From Saprospiraceae bacterium (GTDB taxonomy: Bacteria; Bacteroidota; Bacteroidia; Chitinophagales; Saprospiraceae): a stretch of DNA of 64,000 bases. How positions within the stretch are numbered: the first letter of the stretch is position 1; each line of letters opens with the position of its first letter. The notes beneath the pieces were generated by a model. The model was given only the letters and a program-made list of their open reading frames with translations. It ran no database searches and was not told the origin of the DNA. The DNA lies in the NCBI GenBank assembly GCA_041746735.1, contig JBGTGP010000051.1, positions 56,434 through 120,433 of the forward strand. Direction: 5' to 3'. Below are positions 37,164 to 61,786 of this stretch, piece after piece. Position numbers and translations under genes: made by a program.

Positions 37164-39308
37164 TTAACTGATGGGCATCCCACTTTCGTCAGATGCCGCC
37201 TGAACAAAAAGAAGACGGCCGTCATCATGCTGGGCCATGAGGATCATACCCTGTGAATCAACACCACGGATCTTACGGGGTTCGAGGTTCGCTAAAATGA
37301 CAACTTGCTTTCCGGGTAACTCAGCAGGTGCATAATGCTGCGCGATTCCACTCACGACCGTGCGCTGTATGCCTTTTACATCCAGGGTCAGTTTGAGGAG
37401 TTTGTCTGCTTTCGGCACGGTTTCGGCTGCAAGAATGGTGGCCGTCCGGATATCCATTTTTGCAAACTCATCATAACTAACAGGAGGTTTACTTACTTGT
37501 TGTTTTGGTTCACCTACCGGCTCCGTAGCAGCGGATGACATAGCATGGAGATTCTCAATTTGCTTCTGCACCCATTCATCTTCGATACGGCTAAAGAGAT
37601 GTTCGGGTTGTGCAAGCTGATGATCGTCCGGTATAAGTTTTTCTCCCGCGGCGAGGCTGTCCAGGGTTGTGACCCACACACCTTGTTCGGTAAATGGTCC
37701 CAGGTTAAGCAACTTACGCAATCGAGCTGAGGCATCCGGCATAAAAGGATGCAAGGCGGTGCTCATTGCGGCGAGATACTGAATGCATAAGTTCAGGACG
37801 GCCTTTACTGTTTCAGGTTCGTCTTTCTGGGTTTTCCAGGGTTCATTAAACTGGAGGATCTGATTGCCGGCCGTGGCGATGTCGAGTACGGCTTTGAGCC
37901 CTTCCCGAAAATCATATCTGGAGATCGCATCCTGCACGGACCACATACGGTCGAAGAGATCCATCATTTCAACTTCGTGCCATGATGCTTCGTCATCTCC
38001 GCGGGTGCCTACGATCGGGGTATCCTCATCAAAGGAAGGGACTTTTCCTTCATAGTATTTGTGGTTCAGGACCAGAACTCGCTGAACAAAATTGGCTAGT
38101 GTTCCAACAAGATCTGCGTTGACATCGGACTGATAACCTTTCCAGGTAAACTCGGCGTCCTTTTGTTCAGGCATGTTTTTAGTCAGCACATAGCGCAGGG
38201 CATCTGTTTGCTCTGGATACGCTTCCAGAAATTCATGCACCCAAATGGCCCAGTTACGTGATGTAGAAATCTTTTGTTCTTCCAGGTTGAGAAATTGATT
38301 GGCAGGAACATTGACGGGCAGATTATATTGACCGTGCGCCTTCAGGATGGCCGGGAAGATGAGGCAATGAAAGACGATATTGTCTTTACCAATAAAATGA
38401 ATGACATTGGATTCCGGATCCTGCCAGTAGGCTTTCCAATCCTTACCGTGATCGGCGGCCCATTGTTTGGTTGCGCTTACATAGCCGATAGGCGCATCCA
38501 TCCAGACATATAGTTTTTTGCCTTCAGCACCGGGTATCTCCTGTGGTACATCTACACCCCAGTCGAGATCGCGGGTCATAGCACGAGGTTGCAGACCGCC
38601 GTCGAGCCAGGATTTACATTGGCCCAGGACGTGTGCTTTCCAATCGTTTGGATCGTGATGTTCCTGGCCCTCAAGGATGCCTGTTTCTACCCAGGGGCGG
38701 AGCCAGGATTCATACTGATCCAGAGGAAGATACCAGTGGCGTGTCTTGCGAAGAATCGGTTTAGTTCCCGTTATGGTGGAGACGGGGTTGATGAGTTCGA
38801 GAGGACTTAATGAAGAGCCGCATTTTTCGCATTGATCTCCATAAGCATCCGGATTACTGCACTTCGGACATGTACCTTTGATATATCGGTCGGCCAGAAA
38901 CTTTGCGGCTTGTTCATCGTAATACTGTTCGGACTCCTCTTCGACAAACTGACCTTTGGTGTAGAGGGTCCGAAAGAAGTCCTGAGCGGTTTCGTGATGG
39001 AGTGGAGAAGAGGTACGGTGATATATATCAAATGAGATCCCTGCCTTTCGGAATGTTTCTTCAAACAGTGCGTGGTACTTATCGATGATGGCCTGAGGAG
39101 TCGACTCTTCTTTAAGGGCGCGGATGGTAATGGCGGCGCCATGTTCGTCAGAGCCGCAGATAAAAGCTACATCGTGATCCAGCATCCTCAGCATTCGAAC
39201 ATAAATATCTGCGGGGATATATGCACCGGTGAGGTGTCCTATGTGTAGGGGGCCGTTGGCATATGGCAATGCCGAGGTCACAAGATATCGCCTGGGGGGC
39301 TGGATCAT
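37164..39308 (-). CDS. metG: methionine--tRNA ligase with C-terminal tRNA-binding (Trbp111/EMAP-like) domain
   Basis: TSALPYANGPLHIGH (HIGH), KISTSRN (KMSKS variant), CPKC..CEKC zinc knuckle. Start set at ATG 39308. The ORF-track GTG 39458 extension merely reads through the heptamer repeat. Confidence 0.95.
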   Translation of the reverse strand: MIQPPRRYLVTSALPYANGPLHIGHLTGAYIPADIYVRMLRMLDHDVAFICGSDEHGAAITIRALKEESTPQAIIDKYHALFEETFRKAGISFDIYHRTSSPLHHETAQDFFRTLYTKGQFVEEESEQYYDEQAAKFLADRYIKGTCPKCSNPDAYGDQCEKCGSSLSPLELINPVSTITGTKPILRKTRHWYLPLDQYESWLRPWVETGILEGQEHHDPNDWKAHVLGQCKSWLDGGLQPRAMTRDLDWGVDVPQEIPGAEGKKLYVWMDAPIGYVSATKQWAADHGKDWKAYWQDPESNVIHFIGKDNIVFHCLIFPAILKAHGQYNLPVNVPANQFLNLEEQKISTSRNWAIWVHEFLEAYPEQTDALRYVLTKNMPEQKDAEFTWKGYQSDVNADLVGTLANFVQRVLVLNHKYYEGKVPSFDEDTPIVGTRGDDEASWHEVEMMDLFDRMWSVQDAISRYDFREGLKAVLDIATAGNQILQFNEPWKTQKDEPETVKAVLNLCIQYLAAMSTALHPFMPDASARLRKLLNLGPFTEQGVWVTTLDSLAAGEKLIPDDHQLAQPEHLFSRIEDEWVQKQIENLHAMSSAATEPVGEPKQQVSKPPVSYDEFAKMDIRTATILAAETVPKADKLLKLTLDVKGIQRTVVSGIAQHYAPAELPGKQVVILANLEPRKIRGVDSQGMILMAQHDDGRLLFVQAASDESGMPIS

Positions 39309-39353
39309 AACTTGACTGAATCTGGGGGCGAAGGTAGTCAATATGTAAATGTT

Positions 39354-39374
39354 CTTGCGCGTATTGCGCGCAAG
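39354..39374 (-). other. perfect 8-bp GC-rich hairpin (CTTGCGCG-CAATA-CGCGCAAG on the minus strand) 46 nt upstream of the metG ATG
   Basis: Inverted repeat read directly from the sequence. Function (leader structure, weak terminator of tag or protein site) unknown. Confidence 0.5.
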
Positions 39375-39376
39375 GT

Positions 39377-39438
39377 GGGTAAAGGGTAAAGGGTAAAGTG
39401 GGGAGTGGGGAGTAGGGAGTAGGGAGTGGGGAGTGGGG
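39377..39438 (+). repeat. heptamer microsatellite block 1: (GGGTAAA)3 then (GGGGAGT/AGGGAGT)5 + GGGG
   Basis: Read directly from the sequence. 7-nt period throughout. Confidence 0.95.
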
Positions 39439-39485
39439 TGCTTCGACCCGCTTGACACATCCTCGTGCTACAGCTCAGCAACCGT

Positions 39486-39538
39486 GGGGAGTGGGGAGTA
39501 GTGAGTAGTGAGTGGGGAGTGGGGAGTGGGGAGTGGGG
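39486..39538 (+). repeat. heptamer microsatellite block 2: (GGGGAGT)2 (AGTGAGT)2 (GGGGAGT)3 GGGG
   Basis: Read directly from the sequence. Separated from block 1 by a 47-bp unique spacer. Confidence 0.95.
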
Positions 39539-39547
39539 AATAGTTCT

Positions 39548-40129
39548 TTATGGCGTTAAAAGTTTTTTGCGTCTGAAGCACTTGATCATGTGATCATTGT
39601 ACATGCCGACAGCTTGCATGAAGGCGTAGACGATGGTGGAGCCTGTAAAACTGAAACCTCGTTTTTTAAGGTCTTTACTCAGGGCATCGCTTTCAGGAGA
39701 GTTGGCTCGAAAATCCTTTTCGGAACGAATCGTATTGACAATGGGCTTGCCATCAACGAAGGACCAGAGGTGGGTACTAAAGTTGAGGCCCTGATCCTGC
39801 ATATCGAGAAAGGCTCTTGCATTGGTACGTGCTGACCATACCTTTTGGCGGTTGCGGATGATGCGTTCGTCGAGCAGGATTTTCTCCAGTTTTTTGTCCG
39901 TGTAGCGGGCGATTTTGTCTGGATCGAGATTGTCAAAAACGGACATGTAGCCCTCCTGGCGGCGCAGGATTGTAATCCAGCTCAGGCCGGCCTGGGCGCC
40001 ATCCAGGATAAGTTTGGCGAACAGGGCTTTCGGATCATATTCGGGGACACCCCAGACCGTATCATGGTAATGGATATAGAGGGGATCGTTTCCGCACCAT
40101 AAGCAGCGGGTTATCGAATCGGATTTCAT
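39548..40129 (-). CDS. tag: DNA-3-methyladenine glycosylase I
   Basis: RCLWCGNDPLYIHYHDTVWGVP..LILDGAQAGLSW, typical of Tag. Start set at ATG 40129. The upstream extension is a Pro/His-rich translation of a C-rich leader. Confidence 0.9.
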   Translation of the reverse strand: MKSDSITRCLWCGNDPLYIHYHDTVWGVPEYDPKALFAKLILDGAQAGLSWITILRRQEGYMSVFDNLDPDKIARYTDKKLEKILLDERIIRNRQKVWSARTNARAFLDMQDQGLNFSTHLWSFVDGKPIVNTIRSEKDFRANSPESDALSKDLKKRGFSFTGSTIVYAFMQAVGMYNDHMIKCFRRKKLLTP

Positions 40130-40266
40130 GGGAGGAAGGTAAGGAGAAGTGGGATGATTGGAAATGGAAAAGGGGTGGGTGGGCGGATGATATTGGATAA
40201 GCTGGTGAAAGGGATTGGAGGGGCGGGTGGTGCTTGGAGGATGAGAATCCGGAAGCAAACTGTCAG

Positions 40267-40790
40267 GACTGATTTCGTCGAAATACGTCGGAAGATGACT
40301 GTGGTTATTAGGTTGTGGGCATTTTCAAAACAACATATTATTGCAATCTAACTTATGTTTGAAGTGACTGATTTCGTCGAAATCCATCGCGAGATAGTTG
40401 ATTTTATTGGGTCGTAGAGGTTTTCAACACAATATATTATTAAATTATTAATATGTTTCATCCGACTGATTTCGTCGAAATCCGTCGCGAGATAGTTGAT
40501 TTTATTGGGCTGTAGAGGTTTTTAACACAATATATTATTAATATTGTTAATATACTTTATCCGACTGATTTCGTCGAAATCCGTCGCGAGATAGTTGATT
40601 TTGTTAGGTTGTAGAGGTTTTTAACACAATATATTATCAATATTATTAATATGTTTCGTCCGACTGATTTCGTCGAAATCCGTCGCGAGATATTTGCTTT
40701 TATTGGGTCGTAGAGGTTCTTAACACCATATATAATTGAAATTTATTATTCATTCAATCCAACGGAGTTCATAGAAATCCCTCAATCAAC
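40267..40790 (+). repeat. Array A: tandem 99-bp repeat, five units plus a decayed sixth
   Basis: Unit starts (GACTGATTTCG...) at 40267, 40366, 40464, 40563 and 40662, with a degenerate copy from 40761. Counted directly from the sequence. Confidence 0.95.
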
Positions 40791-40942
40791 CCCCGTGATC
40801 ATTGACATCCCGTAAAGTCCAGCTTTCATCCTTCATCCCATCCGCTTCAATAACCTCTGTACATCCAACACGCCTACCCTACCCCTCACCTTCTCCATAG
40901 CAGCCATCACCTCCCTCACTTAAACCTGTCCAGCCAAATCCG

Positions 40943-40950
40943 TACTTTTG
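40943..40950 (+). promoter_or_regulatory. Bacteroidota-type -7 promoter box TACTTTTG upstream of hmgA
   Basis: Exact match to the TAnnTTTG consensus, 12 nt before ATG 40963. No convincing -33 TTTG seen. Confidence 0.3.
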
Positions 40951-40962
40951 AAGAAAAAAACA

Positions 40963-42126
40963 ATGCCCGTCTACCATACACTCGGATCCATCCCCCAGAA
41001 ACGCCACACGGTATTTGAAAAACCAGCAGGTGGAATCCACTACGAGCAACTTTTTGGTACTATCGGCTTCGACGGAATGTCATCCCTCCTCTACCACCTG
41101 CATCGTCCCACTCAGGTCCGACACATAGGAGAAGCCATAAACGTCATGCCCAAGATCGCAGTCGAACATAATATGACTGCCCGCCTGCTCAAAGGTTTTG
41201 ATATACCCCGCGCCAACGACTGGCTGACGTCCCGCCATCCGCTCCTCATCAATAAAGACATACATGTGGGCCTGGCCGCTCCCACTCAATCCCTGACCGA
41301 ATATTTTTATAAAAATGCCGATGCCGATGAAATGATCTTTGTTCACCGCGGATCGGGCACCCTGCGTACTTTCCTCGGCAATATCCCTTTCGAGTACGGA
41401 GACTATCTGATCATACCCCGCGGCATGATCTACCAGATTGATTTCGATACGGAAGACAATCGCCTGCTCTATGCAGAATCCTTCCACCCGATCTACACGC
41501 CTAAGCGATATCGCAACTGGTTCGGCCAACTCCTCGAACACTCCCCATTTTGTGAACGCGATTACAAACTGCCCCGCGTACTGGAAACCTATGATGAAAA
41601 AGGAGATTTTCTGATCAAAATCAAAAAGCAGGGACAACTTCATCAACTGATCTATGCCACCCATCCTTTTGATGTTGTCGGATGGGACGGCTACAATTTT
41701 CCGTATGGATTTTCCATTCACAACTTTGAACCCATTACCGGACGTGTACACCAACCGCCCCCAGTTCATCAGACCTTTGAGACCAAAGCCTTTGTCGTGT
41801 GCTCTTTCTGCCCGAGACTCTACGATTATCATCCGAAAGCGATCCCGGCACCTTACAACCACAGTAATATTGATTCCGACGAAGTCCTCTACTATGTGGA
41901 TGGCGATTTTATGAGCCGCAACAACATCGCACAAGGCCATATCACGCTCCACCCTGCCGGGATTCCGCATGGACCAGCACCCGGAGCCTACGAAAGAAGC
42001 ATCGGCCAGACCGTAACAGAAGAACTGGCTGTCATGATCGACACCTTTGCACCACTCATGGTCACTGAGCATGCGCTCAAGATTGATGATGGTGTCTACT
42101 TTCAATCCTGGATCGGAGAGGAATAA
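40963..42126 (+). CDS. hmgA: homogentisate 1,2-dioxygenase
   Basis: About 387 aa bacterial short-form HGD with conserved C-terminal HPAGIPHGP region. Clustered with fahA and hppD. ATG 40963 preferred over TTG 40948, which lies inside a TAnnTTTG box. Confidence 0.85.
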   Translation: MPVYHTLGSIPQKRHTVFEKPAGGIHYEQLFGTIGFDGMSSLLYHLHRPTQVRHIGEAINVMPKIAVEHNMTARLLKGFDIPRANDWLTSRHPLLINKDIHVGLAAPTQSLTEYFYKNADADEMIFVHRGSGTLRTFLGNIPFEYGDYLIIPRGMIYQIDFDTEDNRLLYAESFHPIYTPKRYRNWFGQLLEHSPFCERDYKLPRVLETYDEKGDFLIKIKKQGQLHQLIYATHPFDVVGWDGYNFPYGFSIHNFEPITGRVHQPPPVHQTFETKAFVVCSFCPRLYDYHPKAIPAPYNHSNIDSDEVLYYVDGDFMSRNNIAQGHITLHPAGIPHGPAPGAYERSIGQTVTEELAVMIDTFAPLMVTEHALKIDDGVYFQSWIGEE

Positions 42127-42237
42127 TTGCGGACCCACATCTACTGCACAAATCAGTCAATTATAATCTGATCCTATTACATTTTATACTATTTCGTCTT
42201 TTTACAAACAAACATTTTCGTTAAATTTTGACAGCCT

Positions 42238-54646: not shown

Positions 54647-55713
54647 TAGAATCGTGGACAAAAAATAATGGGATCCGGTTTGGGCCTTTTGTAGACCCTG
54701 CCCATATACTGGGCGGCCAACTCAAATCCGCCCTGTGTACCGCTGGCTGTAGAGAGGCTTGATACATTGAGATCGTAGGCAATCATCACCCTGATGTCTC
54801 GGATATCCGCACCCAACATGATCTGAATGGCATCACCGATGCCGGCCCCGCTTCTATACCCTAAACCTCCTTTCATCACAATTTGTTTTTCTGCATCATA
54901 CAGATAATCCAGCATGGCCTGAGCTACAAACGTATTAGCAGCGCTTTTAAATAGTTTCTGGTAGGAAAGGTTTGGTAGAAAACGGATCCGATCAGACAGT
55001 ACGGTAGACATGCCGATGTGGGCGTACCCTCTTGGATCGATGCGGTAATTCCCTCCAGTGGACAGGAGGGAGAAATCCGGCCGGCCAAATTTGCCCGCAG
55101 CGATGCCGATGAAAAACTCATCCGTTTTATTGATTTTGGACGTGAGTTTAAGGCCTCCGACATGATCGAGAAAGGAGTTGCCTTTCTGATCCATATTGAT
55201 GATACTCAGGTCGAGGGAGCTTGATGGATTTCCGGACACCAGACCATCTTCGAAGCGAAGGTTGGCCACATTCTTAATCCTTCGTTGCACACCACCGGTC
55301 TGGTAGGCTAATGATAGCACACTATTGCCTTTCTTTCCCATGGAAAGATGATAGGCAGCACTCAACTTGTAAGAGGTCTGTGCCAAACCGGCAGTGCCTG
55401 ATTTGTCGGTATAGAAAAACAACCCGACGCCCACCCAGTCTTTCTCCTTAAAGCCTCTGAGGATGGGAGCATCGATAGAAAAAGTGGGGGTGGTAAATGC
55501 GCCGTTTCCGGCTACGCTTCTGTATTGATCTCGGTACAGTCCTGAAATTCTGTACGATCCATAGAAGCCTCCGGTATTGGCTGGATTGAACGCCAGAGGC
55601 GTCATCGGATGGAGGGTAAAATGAATGTCCTGTCCATTGGTCATCCCTGCCATGCAGGAAAACAACAAGGCGAAAAGGAACTGTGGGGGTAGTCGAAGTA
55701 GCATCATATACAA
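54646..55713 (-). CDS. PorP/SprF family T9SS membrane protein (second copy in window)
   Basis: Signal peptide, then IHFTLHPMTPLAFNPANTGGF, the family motif. About 355 aa, C-terminal ...FCPRF. Confidence 0.75.
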   Translation of the reverse strand: MYMMLLRLPPQFLFALLFSCMAGMTNGQDIHFTLHPMTPLAFNPANTGGFYGSYRISGLYRDQYRSVAGNGAFTTPTFSIDAPILRGFKEKDWVGVGLFFYTDKSGTAGLAQTSYKLSAAYHLSMGKKGNSVLSLAYQTGGVQRRIKNVANLRFEDGLVSGNPSSSLDLSIINMDQKGNSFLDHVGGLKLTSKINKTDEFFIGIAAGKFGRPDFSLLSTGGNYRIDPRGYAHIGMSTVLSDRIRFLPNLSYQKLFKSAANTFVAQAMLDYLYDAEKQIVMKGGLGYRSGAGIGDAIQIMLGADIRDIRVMIAYDLNVSSLSTASGTQGGFELAAQYMGRVYKRPKPDPIIFCPRF

Positions 55714-55789
55714 TCAATAGCGATTTTCCAACCGGTTTTATGATCCAAACAGCCTGCAAAATATCAATAATTGACGTTATTACGTCGGG

Positions 55790-56806
55790 ATGGGGTCTAA
55801 AGGCAAAATTAAGTGTACAAATGCCAGGTACTTGCTGCTTGCGGTGGTGATGATCTGTTGTGTGCGGATGGAATCCGGGCTGGCGCAGCGGGATACCCTT
55901 GGTTTTTGGGATACGCCCGGGGCTTTCCATAAGGGTCGGTTTTGGGGGGCTGCAGGGACGGGGAGTGTCGCGTTGGGCGGGACCTTGTTTGCGCTGAGTA
56001 CGTTTTGGTATAATGACTATCCGCAAACCTCATTTCACTTTTTTGATGACCGTCGGGAATGGCTTCAAATGGATAAGGCCGGGCATATGTTTACGGCCTA
56101 TTTTCTGTCGGATTGGAGTTATTATGGGGCGCGATGGACGGGCATGTCGCGCAGTTCTTCGATCTGGGCGGGGATGTTTTCGGCATTTGGGATACAGGGG
56201 TCGCTGGAGGTACTAGATGGGTTTTCGTCGGGATGGGGATTTTCATGGTTTGATATTGGGGCCAATCTGGCGGGGAGTGCTTTGTGGGGTGTACAGCAGG
56301 CTTCGTGGGATGAGCAGCGGATACGGATGAAAGTTTCGGGTACCTATCGCCGGTATCCGAATGAGATAGTTACGGGTATACCGGGTGGAAGTAATACACT
56401 GGCAATGCGGGCAAAGGACTTGTATGGGTCTGGTATTTTGCAGACGTTTCTGAAGGATTACAATGCACAAACAATATGGATATCGGTCAATATCGGTTCG
56501 TTTTTGGGTGAGAGTCAGCGCTTTCCGGGGTGGCTCAATTTGGCTGTTGGGTATGGGGCTGAGAATATGTTTGGTGGTATAGAAAACAAGTGGGAGGCTC
56601 AAGGCAACAAGTATGAGGTTTCGGGGGAATTGTATCCTCGCTATCGGCAGTGGTATTTATCGCCGGATGTGGATTTGAGTCGTATACGGGTCAAGAGTCG
56701 GCCTTTTCGTATGGTGTTGGGGATGTTGAATGTGTTTAAGTTGCCTGCTCCGGCGTTGGAGATTCGGGGACGGGGGGGTGTGAGGTGGAGGTGGTTGCAT
56801 TATTAG
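55790..56806 (+). CDS. DUF2279-like (YfiM-like) membrane/periplasmic protein
   Basis: DKAGHMFTAYF and a G/W-rich pattern, as remembered for DUF2279. The family assignment is tentative. Confidence 0.45.
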   Translation: MGSKGKIKCTNARYLLLAVVMICCVRMESGLAQRDTLGFWDTPGAFHKGRFWGAAGTGSVALGGTLFALSTFWYNDYPQTSFHFFDDRREWLQMDKAGHMFTAYFLSDWSYYGARWTGMSRSSSIWAGMFSAFGIQGSLEVLDGFSSGWGFSWFDIGANLAGSALWGVQQASWDEQRIRMKVSGTYRRYPNEIVTGIPGGSNTLAMRAKDLYGSGILQTFLKDYNAQTIWISVNIGSFLGESQRFPGWLNLAVGYGAENMFGGIENKWEAQGNKYEVSGELYPRYRQWYLSPDVDLSRIRVKSRPFRMVLGMLNVFKLPAPALEIRGRGGVRWRWLHY

Positions 56807-56822
56807 GTTGAGGGTTTGCAAG

Positions 56823-57430
56823 GGACGGATTTCGACTCAAAAACACATGTAGGATTTTAATAATACGTTGTTTCGCAAATGGCTATAGCCCAATAACAAC
56901 AGGCATCCAGCGACGGATTTCGACGAAATCAGTCCAAGAGAACATATTAAATGTTTCAATAATACGTTATTCTGAAAATGGCTACAGCCCAATATCCACA
57001 GCCAACCAGCGACGGATTTCGACGAAATCAGTCGGAGAGAACATATTATATATTTAAATAATACGTTGCTTTAAAAATGGCTACAGCCCAATATCCACAG
57101 CCAACCAGCGACGGATTTCGACGAAATCAGTCCAAGAGAACATATTAAATGTTTCAATAATACGTTATTCTGAAAATGGCTACAGCCCAATAACCACAGC
57201 CATCCAGCGACGGATTTCGACGAAATCAGTCGGAGAGAACATATTATATATTTAAATAATACGTTGCTTTAAAAATGGCTACAGCCCAATAACCACAGCC
57301 ATCCAGCGACGGATTTCGACGAAATCAGCCGGGTCAAACATTCCAGAAAAACCAACAATTTCTACCCTGAAAATCCTCCACATCCCAATAATACCAACCA
57401 AACCCCGGCGTATTGCGCCGAAATCAGCCC
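56823..57430 (-). repeat. Array B: the same 99-bp repeat family in inverted orientation, four intact units flanked by decayed ones
   Basis: CGACGGATTTCGACGAAATCAG at 56911, 57010, 57109, 57208 and 57307, exactly 99-bp phase. Decayed copies at 56823 and 57406. The core is the exact reverse complement of the array A core. Confidence 0.95.
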
Positions 57431-57476
57431 AAGCCATCATACCCCACCATACTCCTATTGAAACCGCCGAAAACCC

Positions 57477-58616
57477 CTACTCCCCTATTCCCAACCACGA
57501 CTTCACCGCACCTACCAACTGCTTCTGGATATTTGGATTCGCTCCAACCGCCAATATTACCGATATCAGCAAACCAATCAACGCCGACCCCACATCTTTT
57601 AGAATAATCCGTAGGGCCTTAAACTTATGCGTATATCCCGTCTTGATCCGCGAAAGACTGATCGCAATCTCCCGCCCACCAATCACACCCAAAAAGACCC
57701 ACGTCGTACTCATCGGGACCGTACTGATAAACAATTTATAAATCAACATCACCACATAACTGAAGTCAATCAGCGTCGCCGCCCGAACATCCGATATACG
57801 GGACTTCTCACTCACAATCCGTTGGATCTTATCTCCCTTGAGGTACAACAATAAGCCTAACCCAAAAAAGATCGTCCCCCCGAAGATGAGAAACTGAAGC
57901 GTATCCAACCGCCGCGGTAAAAAAACCGCCACATTGGCCCCATCCTGCATCACCCAGACCGACCACAAACACCCGCTGACGATCCACTGGATCACCGTCC
58001 AGGCAGGATTGGTCTTTCGCTGGCTAAAATATTTTTTAATCAGATTGTACCCCAGATACCAGATCAGAAAGGAAACCATAAACGCCAACCCATATCCCGA
58101 AAGACTCTTGCCAATGATGGACGTAATCCCCGTTGCATCCACACTAAACACACTCAACATCAAAAATGTCGTCGATACCGGCATCCGCAGCCGCGTCAGA
58201 ACCAACAAAACGATAGGCGCAATAATCTGGAAAAAACTGAACTCCTCCGGGTGAGGATACTTGGTGACCCCCTCATCATTCAGTAATCGCTGGTACGTCA
58301 CATCACCATCATAGTAAAACCAACTAAACGTGACGGTGATCAAAAAAATACCCCCAATAAACAGCCACATTATCCACCACTTCCTCTTTTTGTTGCTTTC
58401 AATAAATGTCCCCAGGGATTGAATACTGTCATTGGCCACTGTCGAATACGCCGCAAATAAAAATCCCACCCACATCGCCGACCGGCCAAAATAGACCATC
58501 ACAGATGCCAGCAATGCTCCCGTCAGTACAATCAGTAAAAATGTCCGCTCGGTCACCAGGTAATCCAGAACGTTGAGCGGCCGGTTGGCCCGGGGTGCTT
58601 TCCTTAGCTTGGACAT
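57477..58616 (-). CDS. polytopic membrane protein, distant PiT/PHO4 (inorganic phosphate transporter)-like
   Basis: Duplicated PiT-like signatures: VANDSIQSLGT and QDGANVAVF (GANDVAN-like), PVSTTF and PMSTTW..GVIGG (PVSTTH..G-like). Confidence 0.45.
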   Translation of the reverse strand: MSKLRKAPRANRPLNVLDYLVTERTFLLIVLTGALLASVMVYFGRSAMWVGFLFAAYSTVANDSIQSLGTFIESNKKRKWWIMWLFIGGIFLITVTFSWFYYDGDVTYQRLLNDEGVTKYPHPEEFSFFQIIAPIVLLVLTRLRMPVSTTFLMLSVFSVDATGITSIIGKSLSGYGLAFMVSFLIWYLGYNLIKKYFSQRKTNPAWTVIQWIVSGCLWSVWVMQDGANVAVFLPRRLDTLQFLIFGGTIFFGLGLLLYLKGDKIQRIVSEKSRISDVRAATLIDFSYVVMLIYKLFISTVPMSTTWVFLGVIGGREIAISLSRIKTGYTHKFKALRIILKDVGSALIGLLISVILAVGANPNIQKQLVGAVKSWLGIGE

Positions 58617-58810
58617 CTTACTTACAAAATCAGGTGGTTACACATATTATTAAGCGGCGCAAAGATAGACCCTCCTCCCTTCCTCCATCTAAGACTTCGC
58701 TCAAGTTATTGTTAATTCCTTAAGGTTCAATTTCCAAAATTTTTACATCCCCTTTACATTGCCCACATCTCGACAGATTTCATCCTAATAGCCCTGCCTG
58801 GTAATTCCGG

Positions 58811-60010
58811 TTACATTCGTTTCATTGCAAGTACTCCCAATACAGGTCCTGGTAAGAGTAAAAGAAAGATAAACTCAACACGGATAAAAGCTATCATCCA
58901 TGTTACAAGCTGTATACTCAAAACCGTCACACCAAATCCCAGACTCAACACAGCCGTCAGCGCCGTCCCCCTGTATCCATCCGGCACAGTTTGCGTCACC
59001 AACGCAGAAAATTGCGGCGAATCCAGTATGACCACCACCCCCCAAAAAATCAAAAATAACAGCACCACCCAATCTATTGATAAGGTTAATATCCAGGGTG
59101 AAACAGCACAACAAATGCCTGATATCAACAATGCCCTAAAGGCAACTCTATAACTCCCGACCTTGCGTGCTATATATCCACCCTGCACACACCCCAACGC
59201 CCCCGCAGCAATCACCCCAAAAGATATCAAGGCAACGCACTTTTCATCCAATGCTGCTGTGCAAATCGTCCGACCCACCACATACGGTACAAAAGTCCAA
59301 AAGGCATAGAGTTCCCACATATGGCCGAAATATCCAAAGGCAATAGCCCGAAATTCCTTTTGGCTAAATACCTTTAAAAAAGAACCCACTTTAAAGTTGA
59401 AGTGTCTCGTCCGATACGGACCATCCGGTATAAAAAAGTATACCAGCAATCCCCCTGCCACCGACATTAACGACGTGGTCAACATGACGATTCGCCAATC
59501 CCAACCGGTTTGCAAATAAACCAGCAAATGCGGAAATGCCGTACCCAATACCAATGCTCCCACCAGATAACCAAGAGCCTTACCCAACTCATGCTGATAA
59601 TAATCCGCCGCTATCTTCATCCCCACAGGATATACACCGGCGAGAAAAAACCCCGTTAAAAAGCGCGAACCATACATCATGCTCATCTCCCCTTCGGATA
59701 TGACCATGCCTGCACTGCAACAAGCAGCGATAAGGGCACTCACCAGAAACACACCTGAAGGGCTAAACCTGTCCGCAATGGCCAATGCAGCAAAAACCAG
59801 CGTTCCTCCTATAAAGCCAAGCTGTACCGATGTCGTCAAATGACCGATAACTTCCGGCATCAAGCCAAACTCCGCGACAAGATCCCGGATCACGCTGTTG
59901 CCGGCAAACCACAATGAAACACATAAAAACTGAGAGATCACCAACAATACCAATACCCGTGCTCGACCGGGATAGGTCTGTGGCATCGTATCACCTGCCT
60001 GTTGTTTCAC
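58811..60010 (-). CDS. MFS transporter
   Basis: 12 predicted TM helices, about 400 aa. Confidence 0.7.
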   Translation of the reverse strand: MKQQAGDTMPQTYPGRARVLVLLVISQFLCVSLWFAGNSVIRDLVAEFGLMPEVIGHLTTSVQLGFIGGTLVFAALAIADRFSPSGVFLVSALIAACCSAGMVISEGEMSMMYGSRFLTGFFLAGVYPVGMKIAADYYQHELGKALGYLVGALVLGTAFPHLLVYLQTGWDWRIVMLTTSLMSVAGGLLVYFFIPDGPYRTRHFNFKVGSFLKVFSQKEFRAIAFGYFGHMWELYAFWTFVPYVVGRTICTAALDEKCVALISFGVIAAGALGCVQGGYIARKVGSYRVAFRALLISGICCAVSPWILTLSIDWVVLLFLIFWGVVVILDSPQFSALVTQTVPDGYRGTALTAVLSLGFGVTVLSIQLVTWMIAFIRVEFIFLLLLPGPVLGVLAMKRM

Positions 60011-60046
60011 CCGGCTAACTTACGAATACTGCAATTCAACGACAGC

Positions 60047-61786
60047 TCACTGTACCCGTGAGCCGGCAAGTTTGATATCCGCATGTGCCCAAGCTTCTTT
60101 CAGCAAACGGTCTGTGGCTGCAGCCTGGTCAGGCTGCTTGTTGTCCAGATACGCTTTCTTTAAACCACTGAGTGCCCAGCCATTTTTTGGAAAAATCGTC
60201 AGGTCCTCTTTATACAGATCTATAGCCTCTCTGGCTCGTCCGGCATCCAGTAATATCGCTCCCAGATGATGACGCACAGAAAAGAACCAATCTGGTGGTT
60301 CGTTGTAATTCAATGCATCTTCCAGCACGACGGCTTCCTGCAATAATTTGATGCTTTCTTCCATCTTGCCCTCCTGAGCGAATATCTCGCCCTCCAACAC
60401 CTTTATACCAATCTCCACTACACTATACAGCGAATTGATGCCCCATATAGACATTGCTTTGAGCGTATCATCCTGACTGACCTGCTGCAGACGTGTCAAT
60501 TCCGCTTTGGCTTGTTCAATGTCTTGCATACCCAGATGCGCCATGCCTCTTGCATAGTGCATGATAGCTTGTGCGTATACAAGTTGTGAATCCGGTGCCG
60601 GCAACTTCAGTATGTCTTCCCAGGTGCCAAACTTGACATGCACGAAATAGGGTGTGACATAATAATGTTGAAGCGTAGCCAGATCGGGGATCAGCATACC
60701 TGTGTGGTTGACATGTCTGGCCATCTTGTGTGCTGCATCAATCGCCCATTCCTTCTTTCCTTCCAGCGTAGCCGTCGCCGTCAGAAAATGATAATTGTGC
60801 GGATAATAGGCCAGCGGGTAAGCGCCTTGCGCATGACATTGCGTCACGTACATACTGTCTTGTTTCAGGGCATTAATATTGGCCAGGGAGCCAAAGTGAT
60901 AATCCCCAGTGTTGATATAGATATGCGACGGCATGTGCACCAGATGGCCTGCCTTGGCCACAAGACCGTCATCAAATTTCTTTGCACTGACCAATGCTTT
61001 CTCTGGCGTAGGAGAGGCTTCCCAGGCATGTATGTTATAGTGATGTCCACCGGGATGATCGGGATCCAGCCGGATACATACATCGATAGCGCGTATGATC
61101 TCCTGTGTCCAGGGCCGGGGTGTCCCGTCTTTTTCCCATAAATCCCATGGATGCATATCCATCAACGATTCAGCATAGATGGCCGCGATATTGATATCGT
61201 CCGGATAACGGTGATGCATGACTTTCATCGCCTCCATAAAGGCACTGTCGAGGTGTCGCCGGTCATCGGGGACTTCACGGCTATACCGCAGGACCATAGC
61301 TTCAATCAGATCCCTTTCTTTTTGTGTAGCAGAAGTTGACCATTTCCGGGCCTTGAGTACCGCATCATAGGCGCGCGCATAATTGTCAGGTTCCATCCCT
61401 GCATTATAGTTGGGGCCTAAAACAAAAGCATATCCCCAATAACACATCGCACAGGTACTGTCCAACCGACTGGCATGATAAAATGACCTTGCAGCCTCCG
61501 CGTGATTAAACGCATAAGCAAAAAGCAAACCCTGATTGAAAAACTTCTGTGCTTCTGGATTTGTAGTCGTGACCGGATAATGCAATAGATCCATACCTTC
61601 AAACACCGGAGCCGGATCGCCTGTGGCATACCAGTCGGCATCCGACAACTGCGGTGCGCACCGCATCGGGGATGGTGCAAAGATGTCAACCTGTACCGAA
61701 TCTGGTTTGCGGCAGCCTTGAGCCGCGACGATCAGGACAATGAATAGAATTGATGAGTACTTGTGTAAAATGGGAGAACACCTCAT
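60047..61786 (-). CDS. TPR-repeat lipoprotein of unknown function
   Basis: Lipobox AAQGC after ATG 61786. C-terminal TPR-like helices (ALEDALNYNEPPDW..., GRAREAIDLYKEDL). Confidence 0.55.
   Translation of the reverse strand: MRCSPILHKYSSILFIVLIVAAQGCRKPDSVQVDIFAPSPMRCAPQLSDADWYATGDPAPVFEGMDLLHYPVTTTNPEAQKFFNQGLLFAYAFNHAEAARSFYHASRLDSTCAMCYWGYAFVLGPNYNAGMEPDNYARAYDAVLKARKWSTSATQKERDLIEAMVLRYSREVPDDRRHLDSAFMEAMKVMHHRYPDDINIAAIYAESLMDMHPWDLWEKDGTPRPWTQEIIRAIDVCIRLDPDHPGGHHYNIHAWEASPTPEKALVSAKKFDDGLVAKAGHLVHMPSHIYINTGDYHFGSLANINALKQDSMYVTQCHAQGAYPLAYYPHNYHFLTATATLEGKKEWAIDAAHKMARHVNHTGMLIPDLATLQHYYVTPYFVHVKFGTWEDILKLPAPDSQLVYAQAIMHYARGMAHLGMQDIEQAKAELTRLQQVSQDDTLKAMSIWGINSLYSVVEIGIKVLEGEIFAQEGKMEESIKLLQEAVVLEDALNYNEPPDWFFSVRHHLGAILLDAGRAREAIDLYKEDLTIFPKNGWALSGLKKAYLDNKQPDQAAATDRLLKEAWAHADIKLAGSRVQ

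Follow-up and report, generated by a model that had tools for sequence, protein, structure and literature searches.

The two strongest GC-skew flips among the 64,000 positions of the Saprospiraceae DNA analysed here (the window) fall inside two arrays of the same 99-bp repeat, whose units carry a conserved short palindrome. Because the arrays lie exactly at these sharp flips of strand composition, the repeats are suggested to mark sites of repeated breakage, stalling or resynthesis. Array A, located between tag and hmgA, is interpreted as one of two lineage-specific, non-coding minisatellite copies placed at recurrent two-sided DNA processing points, a reading to which we assign a probability of roughly 0.4.

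Array A consists of five 99-bp units on the plus strand (40267-40760), supported by Tandem Repeats Finder (TRF), units in register, an alignment and nhmmer E-values of 1e-22 to 1e-24. TRF delimits the array at 40267-40749 with a period of 99, 4.9 copies and matches of 84-90%. The earlier note's description of a non-coding tandem repeat, phased at 99 bp and strongly conserved in its core, is upheld, including unit starts at 40267, 40366, 40464, 40563 and 40662, lengths of 99/98/99/99/99 bp, and a 24-nt core (GACTGATTTCGTCGAAATCCGTCG) that is exact in three units and carries one mismatch in two. Each unit proceeds from the palindromic 24-nt core through a TTATTGGGyyGTAG box and a T-run to an AT-rich tail. 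The ATTGGGyyGTAG box attributed to the units is present but takes deviating forms in units 1 and 4 (ATTAGGTTGTGG and GTTAGGTTGTAG). A decayed sixth copy, also proposed from the first inspection, is recognizable at 40761-40790 on the plus strand (AACGGAGTTCATAGAAATCCCTC), where the inner palindrome is kept with one mismatch (GAGTTCATAGAAATC). Stops interrupt all six frames of the array, in agreement with its non-coding character. Across the 64-kb window, ten cores with at most one mismatch are found versus none expected from shuffles. In a separate short-read assembly of this organism the contigs stop at both arrays and end in partial units, so that the repeat is real in the reads; the array copy numbers are those of the NCBI contig only.

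The flanking genes tag (39548-40129, minus strand) and hmgA (40963-42126, plus strand) are divergent, as claimed, and confirmed by Pfam. The gap between them does hold the array, but with these start codons it measures 833 bp and not 818 bp. A -7 promoter box of the Bacteroidetes type TAnnTTTG (TACTTTTG, 40943-40950, plus strand) belongs to hmgA, and it sits within the sole 27 bp of the gap that relatives share. As hmgA has its own box in this conserved segment, the array is not needed as the hmgA promoter.

A second array of the same family, missing from the earlier note, occupies 56836-57429 in the opposite orientation. Its five 99-bp units (56836-57330, minus strand) are defined by TRF periods of 99 and 198, core matches, the units themselves and their alignment, and have minus-strand core starts at 57330, 57231, 57132, 57033 and 56934. 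Two unit subtypes alternate to produce a 198-bp higher-order repeat, visible both to TRF and in the alignment. Array B opens with a degenerate unit (57331-57429, minus strand; nhmmer E 8e-17, alignment row B57429deg) and closes with a half-core (56822-56835, minus strand), identified from its sequence and a weak nhmmer match to model positions 11-23, that lies 16 bp past the stop codon of the DUF2279 gene. Since the permease-DUF2279 gap is 670 bp here and at most 130 bp in relatives, array B is a lineage-specific insertion. Downstream of array A is hmgA, and downstream of array B is the antisense strand of a lipoprotein gene. A tie between the arrays and an adjacent gene family was considered and rejected, as the 379-aa protein, a conserved membrane permease, has no relationship to the 432-aa protein; no remnant of the relatives' 432-aa gene was found in the window. 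Pfam annotation assigns only housekeeping functions to the window genes, among which there is no transposase, nuclease or DNA-binding gene able to act on the core, and no long inverted repeats were found bracketing the arrays.

The core is a 23-nt imperfect palindrome, GAC-T-GATTTC-GTC-GAAATC-C-GTC, that is confined to intergenic DNA and has A-T in six of the nine pairs of its stem. This palindromic nature had been overlooked in the first description. Between arrays A and B the core is identical at 24 of 24 positions, as against 68% identity over the remaining 75 nt (P about 1e-4), and variable columns make up 3 of 24 in the core versus 53 of 75 in the rest of the unit (Fisher 6e-7); whole-unit identity within an array is 80-98%. 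In a relative whose MetRS is 84% identical, the arms GATTTC/GAAATC are invariant and the 3-nt centre is variable. Two samples of that relative show one difference in 99 nt of palindrome versus 21 in 231 nt of spacer (p = 0.006). By these comparisons the palindrome, rather than the remainder of the unit, is the part under constraint, most probably owing to a protein that recognizes a symmetric site or a hairpin. Expansion and homogenization by unequal recombination are indicated by the edge units, which are the most diverged of an array, and by the higher-order repeat of array B.

The first inspection had proposed that the unit would be neutral satellite or REP-like DNA if it were a common dispersed element, or if it were absent from all relatives and untranscribed. 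The idea of a common dispersed element is not borne out, as two loci are seen in about 157 kb (84 kb by direct reading, the remainder inferred from breaks in the short-read assembly) and other genomes have none. No relative examined carries the full 99-bp unit, but the palindrome arms persist in one of them, the relative introduced above, as a loose cluster of GATTTC-N3-GAAATC in the same neighbourhood. Further arrays were not found when genomes and metagenomes were scanned for the exact core; the three genome and two metagenome matches are all single chance matches in GC-rich coding DNA. A phage or plasmid origin was rejected, with no BLAST match in collections of phages and plasmids and 0 viral contigs.

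The arrays coincide with abrupt changes in strand composition. Measured as the skew of the left 1 kb minus that of the right 1 kb, the flips inside the two arrays reach 0.71 and 0.58, the next-largest flip in the window being 0.21; relative to a background SD of 0.073, the array flips amount to about 10 and 8 SD. To the left of array A (39000-40266) the plus strand is G-rich, with a GC skew of +0.26 to +0.45 through heptamer repeats, tag and a G-rich spacer. The heptamers, (GGGTAAA)3, (AGTGGGG)6 and (GTGGGGA)8, were located by TRF and k-mer analysis upstream of metG (39377-39539, plus strand). To the right (40790-42200) the minus strand is G-rich, with a plus-strand skew of -0.15 to -0.40 through the hmgA leader and hmgA. 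Array B follows suit, the plus strand being G-rich on its left (55700-56835, skew +0.21 to +0.43; DUF2279 gene) and the minus strand on its right (57430-60450, plus-strand skew -0.14 to -0.47; permease, MFS genes and the 3' end of a TPR gene). On both sides the G-enriched strand is the one whose 3' end points at the array, and this polarity is alike at both arrays despite their opposite gene arrangements and orientations. These extreme local switches had also escaped the earlier note, and they are the feature that makes the arrays unusual.

At fourfold sites, G accounts for 0.47-0.58 in the skewed flanks versus 0.27-0.31 in the background, G being gained while A, C and T are lost. The skew is not an effect of gene expression or codon usage, since it extends into non-coding flanks and its polarity does not differ between divergent and convergent pairs of genes. 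If single-stranded DNA were simply deaminated, C-to-T change would be expected; T is not raised in the flanks, and C-to-T deamination was rejected as the cause. As the gain of G is not a C-to-T change, an extra assumption is needed, for example that C is inserted opposite damaged bases or that the repair polymerase is biased. A polarized substitution spectrum is no more than suggestive, with too few informative sites because synonymous sites are near saturation. No clear acceleration of protein divergence was seen inside the skew domains.

Comparison with relatives links the skew to the repeat at locus B, where it is absent from orthologous loci without an array: the permease has a skew of +0.50 here versus -0.10 and +0.02 in array-less orthologues, and the DUF2279 gene +0.64 versus 0.00. 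In the relative with the palindrome cluster, the cluster adjoins the top flip of that locus (0.55), which is the same flip as at the arrays. The palindrome-less relatives differ among themselves, skew being flat in L010, L020 and L021, while L016 and L019 flip moderately (0.40) at the tag-proximal gap; the skew at locus A may therefore be in part older or otherwise caused. The association of repeat and skew covers three loci in two species only. Between the two samples of the relative, no polymorphism gradient from the cluster was detected (p = 0.65, low power), the pattern being a patchy recombination mosaic.

In the mechanism proposed here, the 23-nt imperfect palindrome with its GATTTC/GAAATC arms would be the functional kernel. 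A protein may bind the core, and breaks or nicks at the array palindromes would be followed by outward resection and resynthesis over 1-3 kb on both sides. Over evolutionary time such repair synthesis could enrich G on the strand whose 3' end is directed toward the array, and the same repair events could drive tandem expansion. A limit on the break model is that the palindrome is short (23 nt) and AT-rich; SbcCD cleavage in E. coli has been demonstrated for palindromes of hundreds of bp. When 5'-3' resection proceeds to both sides of a break, the resulting mutation tracts change strand at the break, with the same sign as here (PMC6786661), and in E. coli break-proximal mutagenesis peaks within 2 kb and is ascribed to resection and gap filling (PMC3607216). 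Palindromes are hotspots of breakage (PMC4245961). A more far-reaching and quite tentative proposal is that palindrome-cored arrays are built-in sites at which two-sided breakage, nicking or fork arrest recurs, and whose repair may have written the kilobase-scale, strand-symmetric G enrichment and thereby altered amino-acid composition.

An unlikely but still serious alternative treats the repeat as a neutral or selfish minisatellite with which the flank skew has no connection, the skew reflecting gene-specific composition or both features accumulating at permissive junctions. The unit is absent from every other genome scanned, and this genome and its relatives have many intergenic repeats. 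In A units 2-5, a variant without the second hairpin (considered below) was still amplified, as indifferent amplification predicts. The moderate flips of L016 and L019 occur at the same junction with the palindrome absent, and ordinary flips of 0.3-0.37 are found in coding sequence elsewhere. Such indifference does not, however, account for a core whose conservation, across arrays as well as across species, is far above that of the remaining unit, nor for the coincidence of the two largest flips in 64 kb with the two arrays. The absence of skew from the array-less orthologues at locus B tells against it too, as do the inclusion of non-coding flanks and the polarity shared by divergent and convergent pairs.

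A somewhat more doubtful alternative is that the array is a set of tandem small-RNA genes resembling NsiR1, or one long sponge RNA of repeated hairpins. Each unit would then have a promoter in the AT-rich tail, a start at the core hairpin and an end at a terminator-like hairpin followed by a U-run. The core strand of the B units is predicted to form three hairpins at -26 to -28 kcal/mol (z -2.8 to -3.3), with UUUU after the second, and G-U pairs let it fold better than its complement. Unit length is conserved, a Bacteroidetes -7-like box lies 4-7 nt upstream of each core and is exact in unit A1 (TATGTTTG), and the pattern of identical central copies and diverged edge copies is also that of the NsiR1 array (PMC9045159). 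Against this, A units 2-5 have a disrupted second hairpin (74% of cells paired), covariation does not rise above shuffles, and the 75 nt outside the core score inconsistently, with z of -2.9 and -1.5 for B as against +1.3, -0.6 and -1.2 for A, the opposite strand being similar. The three-hairpin RNA model was rejected on these grounds, the core hairpin alone holding up. A promoter in every unit is doubtful as well, the TAnnTTTG near-match that precedes each core being exact in 1 of 11 units, though the exact box is a good predictor of gene starts elsewhere in the genome, and a sigma-70 scan giving results at chance level. In addition, the relative keeps the palindrome only and no transcription unit, and the symmetric skew of the flanks would be left unexplained. 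That the non-core part is without supported RNA structure is a point on which the first description was silent.

Other identities were tried. The original statement that the repeat matches no known RNA family, IS end or CRISPR is correct. Rfam gave no match over the window at gathering thresholds, the best permissive scores being 13-18 bits versus cut-offs of 37-279, and the window holds no tRNA or tmRNA gene. CRISPR was rejected because the 75-nt inter-core segments are homologous to one another and are not unique spacers, and cas genes are absent from the window. A type III toxin-antitoxin system was rejected on unit length (99 nt versus about 36 nt for ToxI-like repeats) and the lack of partner genes, and an integron attC site on its misfitting anatomy and absent partner genes. 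A coding repeat was rejected although 99 nt would equal 33 codons: the antisense frame is nearly open in B, yet stops occur in the consensus sequences of both arrays. Differences between A and B fall 10/8/6 by codon position (p = 0.6), showing no third-position excess, codon changes are 13 non-synonymous versus 2 synonymous, and array translations match no Pfam family at cut-off.

There is a slim chance that the arrays form a protein-bound fork trap of the Ter/Tus or Ter/RTP kind, in which stalled forks would expose the lagging-strand template and the two oppositely oriented arrays, 16 kb apart, would catch forks between them. The plus-to-minus flip has the sign of a terminus, the arrays have opposite polarity, the cumulative skew is highest near array A, and most genes beyond about 45 kb, toward the right, are on the minus strand; by our own estimate the skewed tract is also similar in length to an Okazaki fragment. 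However, the background plus-strand GC3 skew is about +0.05 on the left and about 0 beyond array B, with no clear reversal, and an amplitude of 0.4 greatly exceeds ordinary replication skew. Skew is present on each of the four flanks, so that forks would have to reach each array from both sides, and the relative's cluster would need a terminus position too. No dif-like site was found using the proteobacterial consensus. A dif/Xer site was itself rejected, with no match at up to three mismatches to that consensus. An oriC or iteron identity was rejected with 13 DnaA-box near-matches versus 18.6 expected and a skew switch of the opposite sign.

The least probable of these alternatives holds that the array is a series of sites for a dimeric DNA-binding protein that serves in chromosome architecture or regulation, be it an operator decoy, a centromere-like element or a gyrase target, and that the G-rich flanks are selected Chi- or KOPS-like signals steering a translocase or nuclease. 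Invariant arms around a variable centre are the classic signature of a dimeric-protein operator. F-plasmid sopC is a tandem array of 43-bp units with an inverted repeat in each, and the units described here are alike in this respect. BIMEs bind gyrase and IHF (PMC3184786), and on both sides the G-rich words are directed toward the array, as correctly oriented Chi or KOPS sites would be. A discrete oriented motif of this type was rejected, however, since only a general enrichment of G and G-runs is left once the heptamer repeat is set aside. Fourfold-site G of 0.58 resembles mutational pressure rather than motif selection, a partner gene is absent nearby, and the 99-bp spacing is out of helical phase (9.4 turns).

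By itself, the array adds little to the many intergenic repeats that are restricted to one lineage. What the three independent loci, from two species, bring in addition is a palindrome family on or beside the strongest local GC-skew switch, with a skew polarity that follows the repeat and not transcription or array orientation. If the arrays are indeed sites of such recurrent breakage, nicking or fork arrest, this would be, to our knowledge, the first repeat-centred local domain of mutational asymmetry in a bacterial chromosome. Should the association hold genome-wide, short palindromic repeats could shape composition, codon usage and protein sequence over kilobases, and skew switches could serve as a sequence-only finder of fragile, recombinogenic or fork-pausing sites in uncultured bacteria. 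They could also allow the polarity and length of repair tracts to be read from natural sequences, and connect break repair mechanistically with the origin of tandem arrays. Some caution is warranted, as the arrays break short-read assemblies and long spurious antisense ORFs arise in the skewed flanks.

Among known systems, REP/BIME elements share the short imperfect palindrome (23 nt here versus a REP range of 21-65 bp), the strictly extragenic location, the species-specific sequence, the clustering and a presence that is polymorphic among close relatives (PMC3184786). They also resemble the present repeat in lying between convergent genes, as at array B and the relative's cluster, and they are gyrase binding and cleavage sites (PMC3184786). 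They differ in that the stem here is AT-rich and the REP stem G+C-rich, the copies here run head-to-tail at a fixed 99-bp period whereas BIME orientations alternate, and two loci are seen in the roughly 157 kb covered, as against hundreds of REP copies dispersed round a genome. There is no GTAG directly 5' of the hairpin, unlike in REP, and no RAYT (Y1 transposase) gene in the window or flanks. MIRU-type minisatellites, which are VNTR loci, and pneumococcal BOX elements are similar in that units of about 50-100 bp stand in tandem in more than one intergenic region, the central units homogenized and the edge units diverged; MIRUs, however, are not defined by a palindromic core, and their small ORFs overlap flanking stop and start codons, which is not seen here. 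NsiR1 of Nostoc has 12 tandem copies, each with its own promoter, whereas the present units have no promoter or terminator conserved in all of them and no supported RNA structure beyond the palindrome.

With regard to the skew, yeast and E. coli break tracts likewise have one strand-bias switch at one point over a few kb (PMC6786661, PMC3607216), and C is lost from the strand whose 3' end faces the break. Those tracts are experimental clusters from single events, whereas the composition described here is a fixed equilibrium in a wild genome and reflects a gain of G rather than C-to-T change. The combination of dif with FtsK-orienting sequences is also comparable in placing an intergenic palindromic site at a plus-to-minus switch with G-rich words directed inward (PMC3091885). 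However, dif occurs singly, its 28 bp made up of 11-bp arms around a 6-bp centre, as opposed to 10-12 copies in two arrays with a 3-bp centre, and the skew here is local (1-3 kb) and much stronger. Taken together, the repeat is best read as a REP/MIRU-like palindromic minisatellite that may mark recurrent two-sided DNA processing.

Tandem Repeats Finder places the 99-bp repeat where the earlier note had described it, between tag, a methyladenine glycosylase gene (39548-40129, minus strand), and hmgA, a homogentisate dioxygenase gene (40963-42126, plus strand). This array A spans 40267-40749 with a period of 99, 4.9 copies and 84-90% matches. Its units begin at 40267, 40366, 40464, 40563 and 40662 as claimed; three of them match the 24-nt core GACTGATTTCGTCGAAATCCGTCG exactly and the other two have a one-base mismatch to it, and a decayed sixth core lies at 40761. 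The flanking genes are indeed divergent, but the gap between them measures 833 bp with the start codons used here, not 818 bp. Across the window there are ten core copies with one mismatch at most, and none in shuffles. A sister array on the opposite strand, array B (56836-57429, core on the minus strand), was absent from the earlier text; it starts with a degenerate unit, continues with five good ones and ends in a half-core. The genes on either side of it are convergent and encode a DUF2279 lipoprotein and a conserved membrane permease. In an independent assembly of this organism from short reads (SRR28170463), contigs break at both arrays and retain partial units at their ends; the repeat is therefore no assembly artefact, with array copy number taken from one contig alone. 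Contigs L001, L011 and L012 of that assembly are 100% identical to the window over their overlap, and the assembly is fragmented at both arrays and apparently also at heptamer repeats near 39.4 kb. As these fragments illustrate, such repeats limit contig size in metagenome assemblies.

The heptamer repeats, (GGGTAAA)3, (AGTGGGG)6 and (GTGGGGA)8, occupy 39377-39539 directly upstream of metG and are pyrimidine-rich on its sense strand. Two relatives have a short tandem repeat of another, CGCCTT-type unit upstream of metG (L007:5901-6047 and L018 ~2380-2440), and the presence of a repeat there, though not its sequence, is conserved. In a third relative, (CTCTCGC)14 is found at another locus (L010:19636-19735).

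The core forms an imperfect palindrome, GAC-T-GATTTC-GTC-GAAATC-C-GTC. When the 11 units are aligned by core orientation, each has a length of 99 nt, barring one 1-nt deletion. Arrays A and B are identical at 24/24 core positions and at 51/75 others, and the chance of such core identity at the background rate is ~1e-4; variable columns number 3/24 in the core versus 53/75 elsewhere (Fisher 6e-7). Conservation also covers some smaller blocks, namely TTATTGGGyyGTAG, a T-run, CAAyrTATTATT and TAATATGTT. Divergence is greatest in the edge units, and within array B (56935-57330) two unit subtypes alternate in a 198-bp higher-order repeat whose two dimers are two substitutions apart. Diverged edges and a higher-order repeat are signatures of expansion and homogenisation via unequal recombination or slippage. 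One of the dimer substitutions gives rise to a pair of DnaA boxes close to consensus (ATATCCACA, at 56992 and at 57091).

The interest of the arrays lies in their association with GC skew and not in the repeat itself. Across 83 kb, third-position GC (GC3) skew per gene stays within ~±0.2, except in the genes next to the arrays. On the coding strand it is -0.41 in tag, left of array A, and -0.43 in hmgA to its right; at array B it is +0.64 in the DUF2279 gene on the left, and +0.50 in the permease gene and +0.46 in the MFS gene beyond it on the right. Read on the plus strand, both arrays have a G-rich left side and a C-rich right side, and the skewed flanks extend ~1.3 and 1.4 kb at array A and 1.1 and 3 kb at array B. 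When the skew of the right 1 kb is subtracted from that of the left 1 kb at all positions scanned, the top two values of this flip, 0.71 (position 56882) and 0.58 (position 40320), both fall within the arrays. The third-highest peak reaches 0.21, against a background SD of 0.073. The polarity is the same despite gene orientation (divergent at A, convergent at B) and core strand (plus at A, minus at B), and the skew extends over non-coding flanks too. It is therefore tied to the symmetric element and does not come from transcription or codon usage. At fourfold-degenerate sites on the strand with its 3' end toward the array, G reaches 0.47-0.58 where the background has 0.27-0.31, and each of A, C and T is reduced. 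First and second codon positions are also affected, the DUF2279 protein having 15 more Gly and 12 more Arg than its orthologue. A 352-aa ORF runs antisense across nearly all of hmgA (41080-42138, minus strand); most likely it is no gene and is a side effect of the high C content at hmgA third positions, which eliminates stops on the opposite strand.

MetRS places the organism in Saprospiraceae, with its nearest relatives 84% identical. Searching other genomes for the exact core returned chance matches alone, all of them in coding DNA of unrelated taxa. Over 84 kb of this genome, a profile search with the unit found full copies in the two arrays only, and the pattern of short-read assembly breaks suggests that further arrays are absent across ~157 kb. 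Among relatives, the tag-hmgA junction holds a 432-aa gene and a DUF2490 gene (L007), a 433- to 440-aa gene (L010, L020), a small ArsR-type gene (L016), a 425-aa gene and a small ArsR-type gene (L019) or next to nothing (L018). The 99-bp repeat was not found at this junction in the closest relative, represented by the samples L007 and L008; a 250-bp cluster there contains five or six palindromes that share the arms of the core (GGATTTC-nnC-GAAATC) and fall into three loosely periodic groups. The two samples differ at 1/99 nt in the palindromes and 21/231 nt in the spacers (p = 0.006). Given the common arms and this low divergence, the palindrome is older than the 99-bp unit, and it is the constrained part in both lineages. 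At the position of array B, relatives have a palindrome-free gap of at most 130 bp, so array B is a lineage-specific insertion. Over 8.4 kb the two samples are 98.7% identical overall, with their differences in blocks: difference-free runs alternate with dense patches, and a 54-bp spacer in the palindrome cluster has ~14 differences. This patchiness suggests recombination, or conversion from paralogous copies.

Relatives without array B are unskewed at its locus (permease gene -0.10 and +0.02; DUF2279 gene 0.00). The palindrome cluster of L007 sits at the top flip of its locus, 0.55; the adjoining 432-aa gene has a GC3 skew of +0.32, and in tag the fourfold sites reach 73% C, equivalent to G on the strand with its 3' end toward the cluster. 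Orthologous genes at the tag-hmgA locus are flat in the palindrome-less L010, L020 and L021. L016 and L019, also without the array's palindrome, have a moderate flip of 0.40 in the gap between their HTH gene and tag, and part of the skew at this locus may therefore be older or of other cause. Flips of 0.3-0.37 are also seen in ordinary coding DNA. The HTH gene in question is of ArsR/HTH_5 type, encodes 102 aa and lies at the tag end of the junction (L016:8785-9340, L019:4016-4911). Palindromes TATATACGGTATATACG flank it on both sides in L016 and a palindrome GTAAACGTTTGTAAACGTTTAC adjoins it in L019; these are probably operators of the ArsR-type regulator. The repeat-skew association is based on three loci in two species, and no bacterial precedent for it was found in the literature searched.

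In sign, the switch matches converging leading strands or, equivalently, two-sided 5'-to-3' resection from a central break, in which the strand with its 3' end facing the centre would be left single-stranded and the strand with its 5' end facing it resynthesised. In yeast, the mutation tracts left by such resection change strand at the break, with the same polarity (PMC6786661). Palindromes are break hotspots (PMC4245961), and REP clusters are gyrase cleavage sites (PMC3184786). In the favoured reading, the palindromes would be recognised or structurally fragile sites at which recurrent breaks or nicks would be mended from the sister chromosome. Unequal alignment in repair would expand and homogenise the array, while the flanks, repeatedly exposed and resynthesised, would drift towards G on one strand. 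Two links in this chain are inferred, the one between palindrome and break and the one between repair and the rise in G. Several results speak against this reading. The gain is of G and not T, and simple deamination fails to account for it. The few polarisable substitutions favour changes to G, C-to-G especially, with synonymous sites near saturation. No discrete Chi- or KOPS-like motif behind the G excess was found in the flanks, nor a polymorphism gradient away from the cluster between L007 and L008. A fork trap at the arrays would fit both the direction of the flip and the fact that arrays A and B face opposite ways; it requires, however, that forks reach the arrays from both sides, and across the window there is no clear reversal of background skew.

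Tandem small-RNA genes, for which NsiR1 is a precedent (PMC9045159), are a possible but weak reading of the arrays. On the core strand, B units are predicted to form three hairpins with z ~-3, namely the core itself, a stem resembling a terminator with a U-run after it, and an AT-rich stem. However, A units 2-5 have a disrupted second stem, covariation does not surpass that of shuffled controls, the z-scores of the non-core 75 nt are inconsistent on either strand, and the Bacteroidetes -7 box TAnnTTTG is exact in only 1/11 units. In this genome that box is a good predictor of gene starts, including that of hmgA (box at 40943-40950), with 10 of its 16 non-coding matches within ~200 nt upstream of a same-strand start. 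The hmgA box lies within the sole 27 bp of the gap kept in relatives.

A coding repeat is ruled out by stops in every frame, stops in both array consensus sequences, A-B differences spread evenly over codon positions (10/8/6, p = 0.6) and 13 non-synonymous versus 2 synonymous codon changes; no Pfam family reached cut-off. Antisense to the core, the plus strand at 56836-57429 can be read almost without interruption as a 33-aa repeat (..IIRCFxNGYSPIxT..QRRISTKSV), its 198 codons including only 2 stops, and the coding tests on it are negative. Rfam returned nothing at gathering thresholds and noise alone at permissive ones, in agreement with the earlier note, which had recognised no known RNA family, and no tRNA genes were found in the window. 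A CRISPR is likewise rejected, as the 75-nt inter-core segments are mutually homologous and cas genes are absent. A replication origin is rejected on DnaA-box near-matches fewer than expected and a skew switch of opposite sign, a dif site on no match to the standard consensus, and a phage or plasmid origin on no match in phage and plasmid collections. Housekeeping functions make up the whole window, and it contains no transposase, integrase or regulator as a partner gene.

Compared with REP/BIME elements, the stem is AT-rich, the copies are direct and phased, the loci are few, and no RAYT gene was found in the window; compared with MIRU, small ORFs overlapping the neighbours were not found. 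The element is not a member of the REP/BIME, MIRU or BOX families; it is closest in kind to REP/BIME palindromes, laid out as a MIRU or BOX minisatellite.
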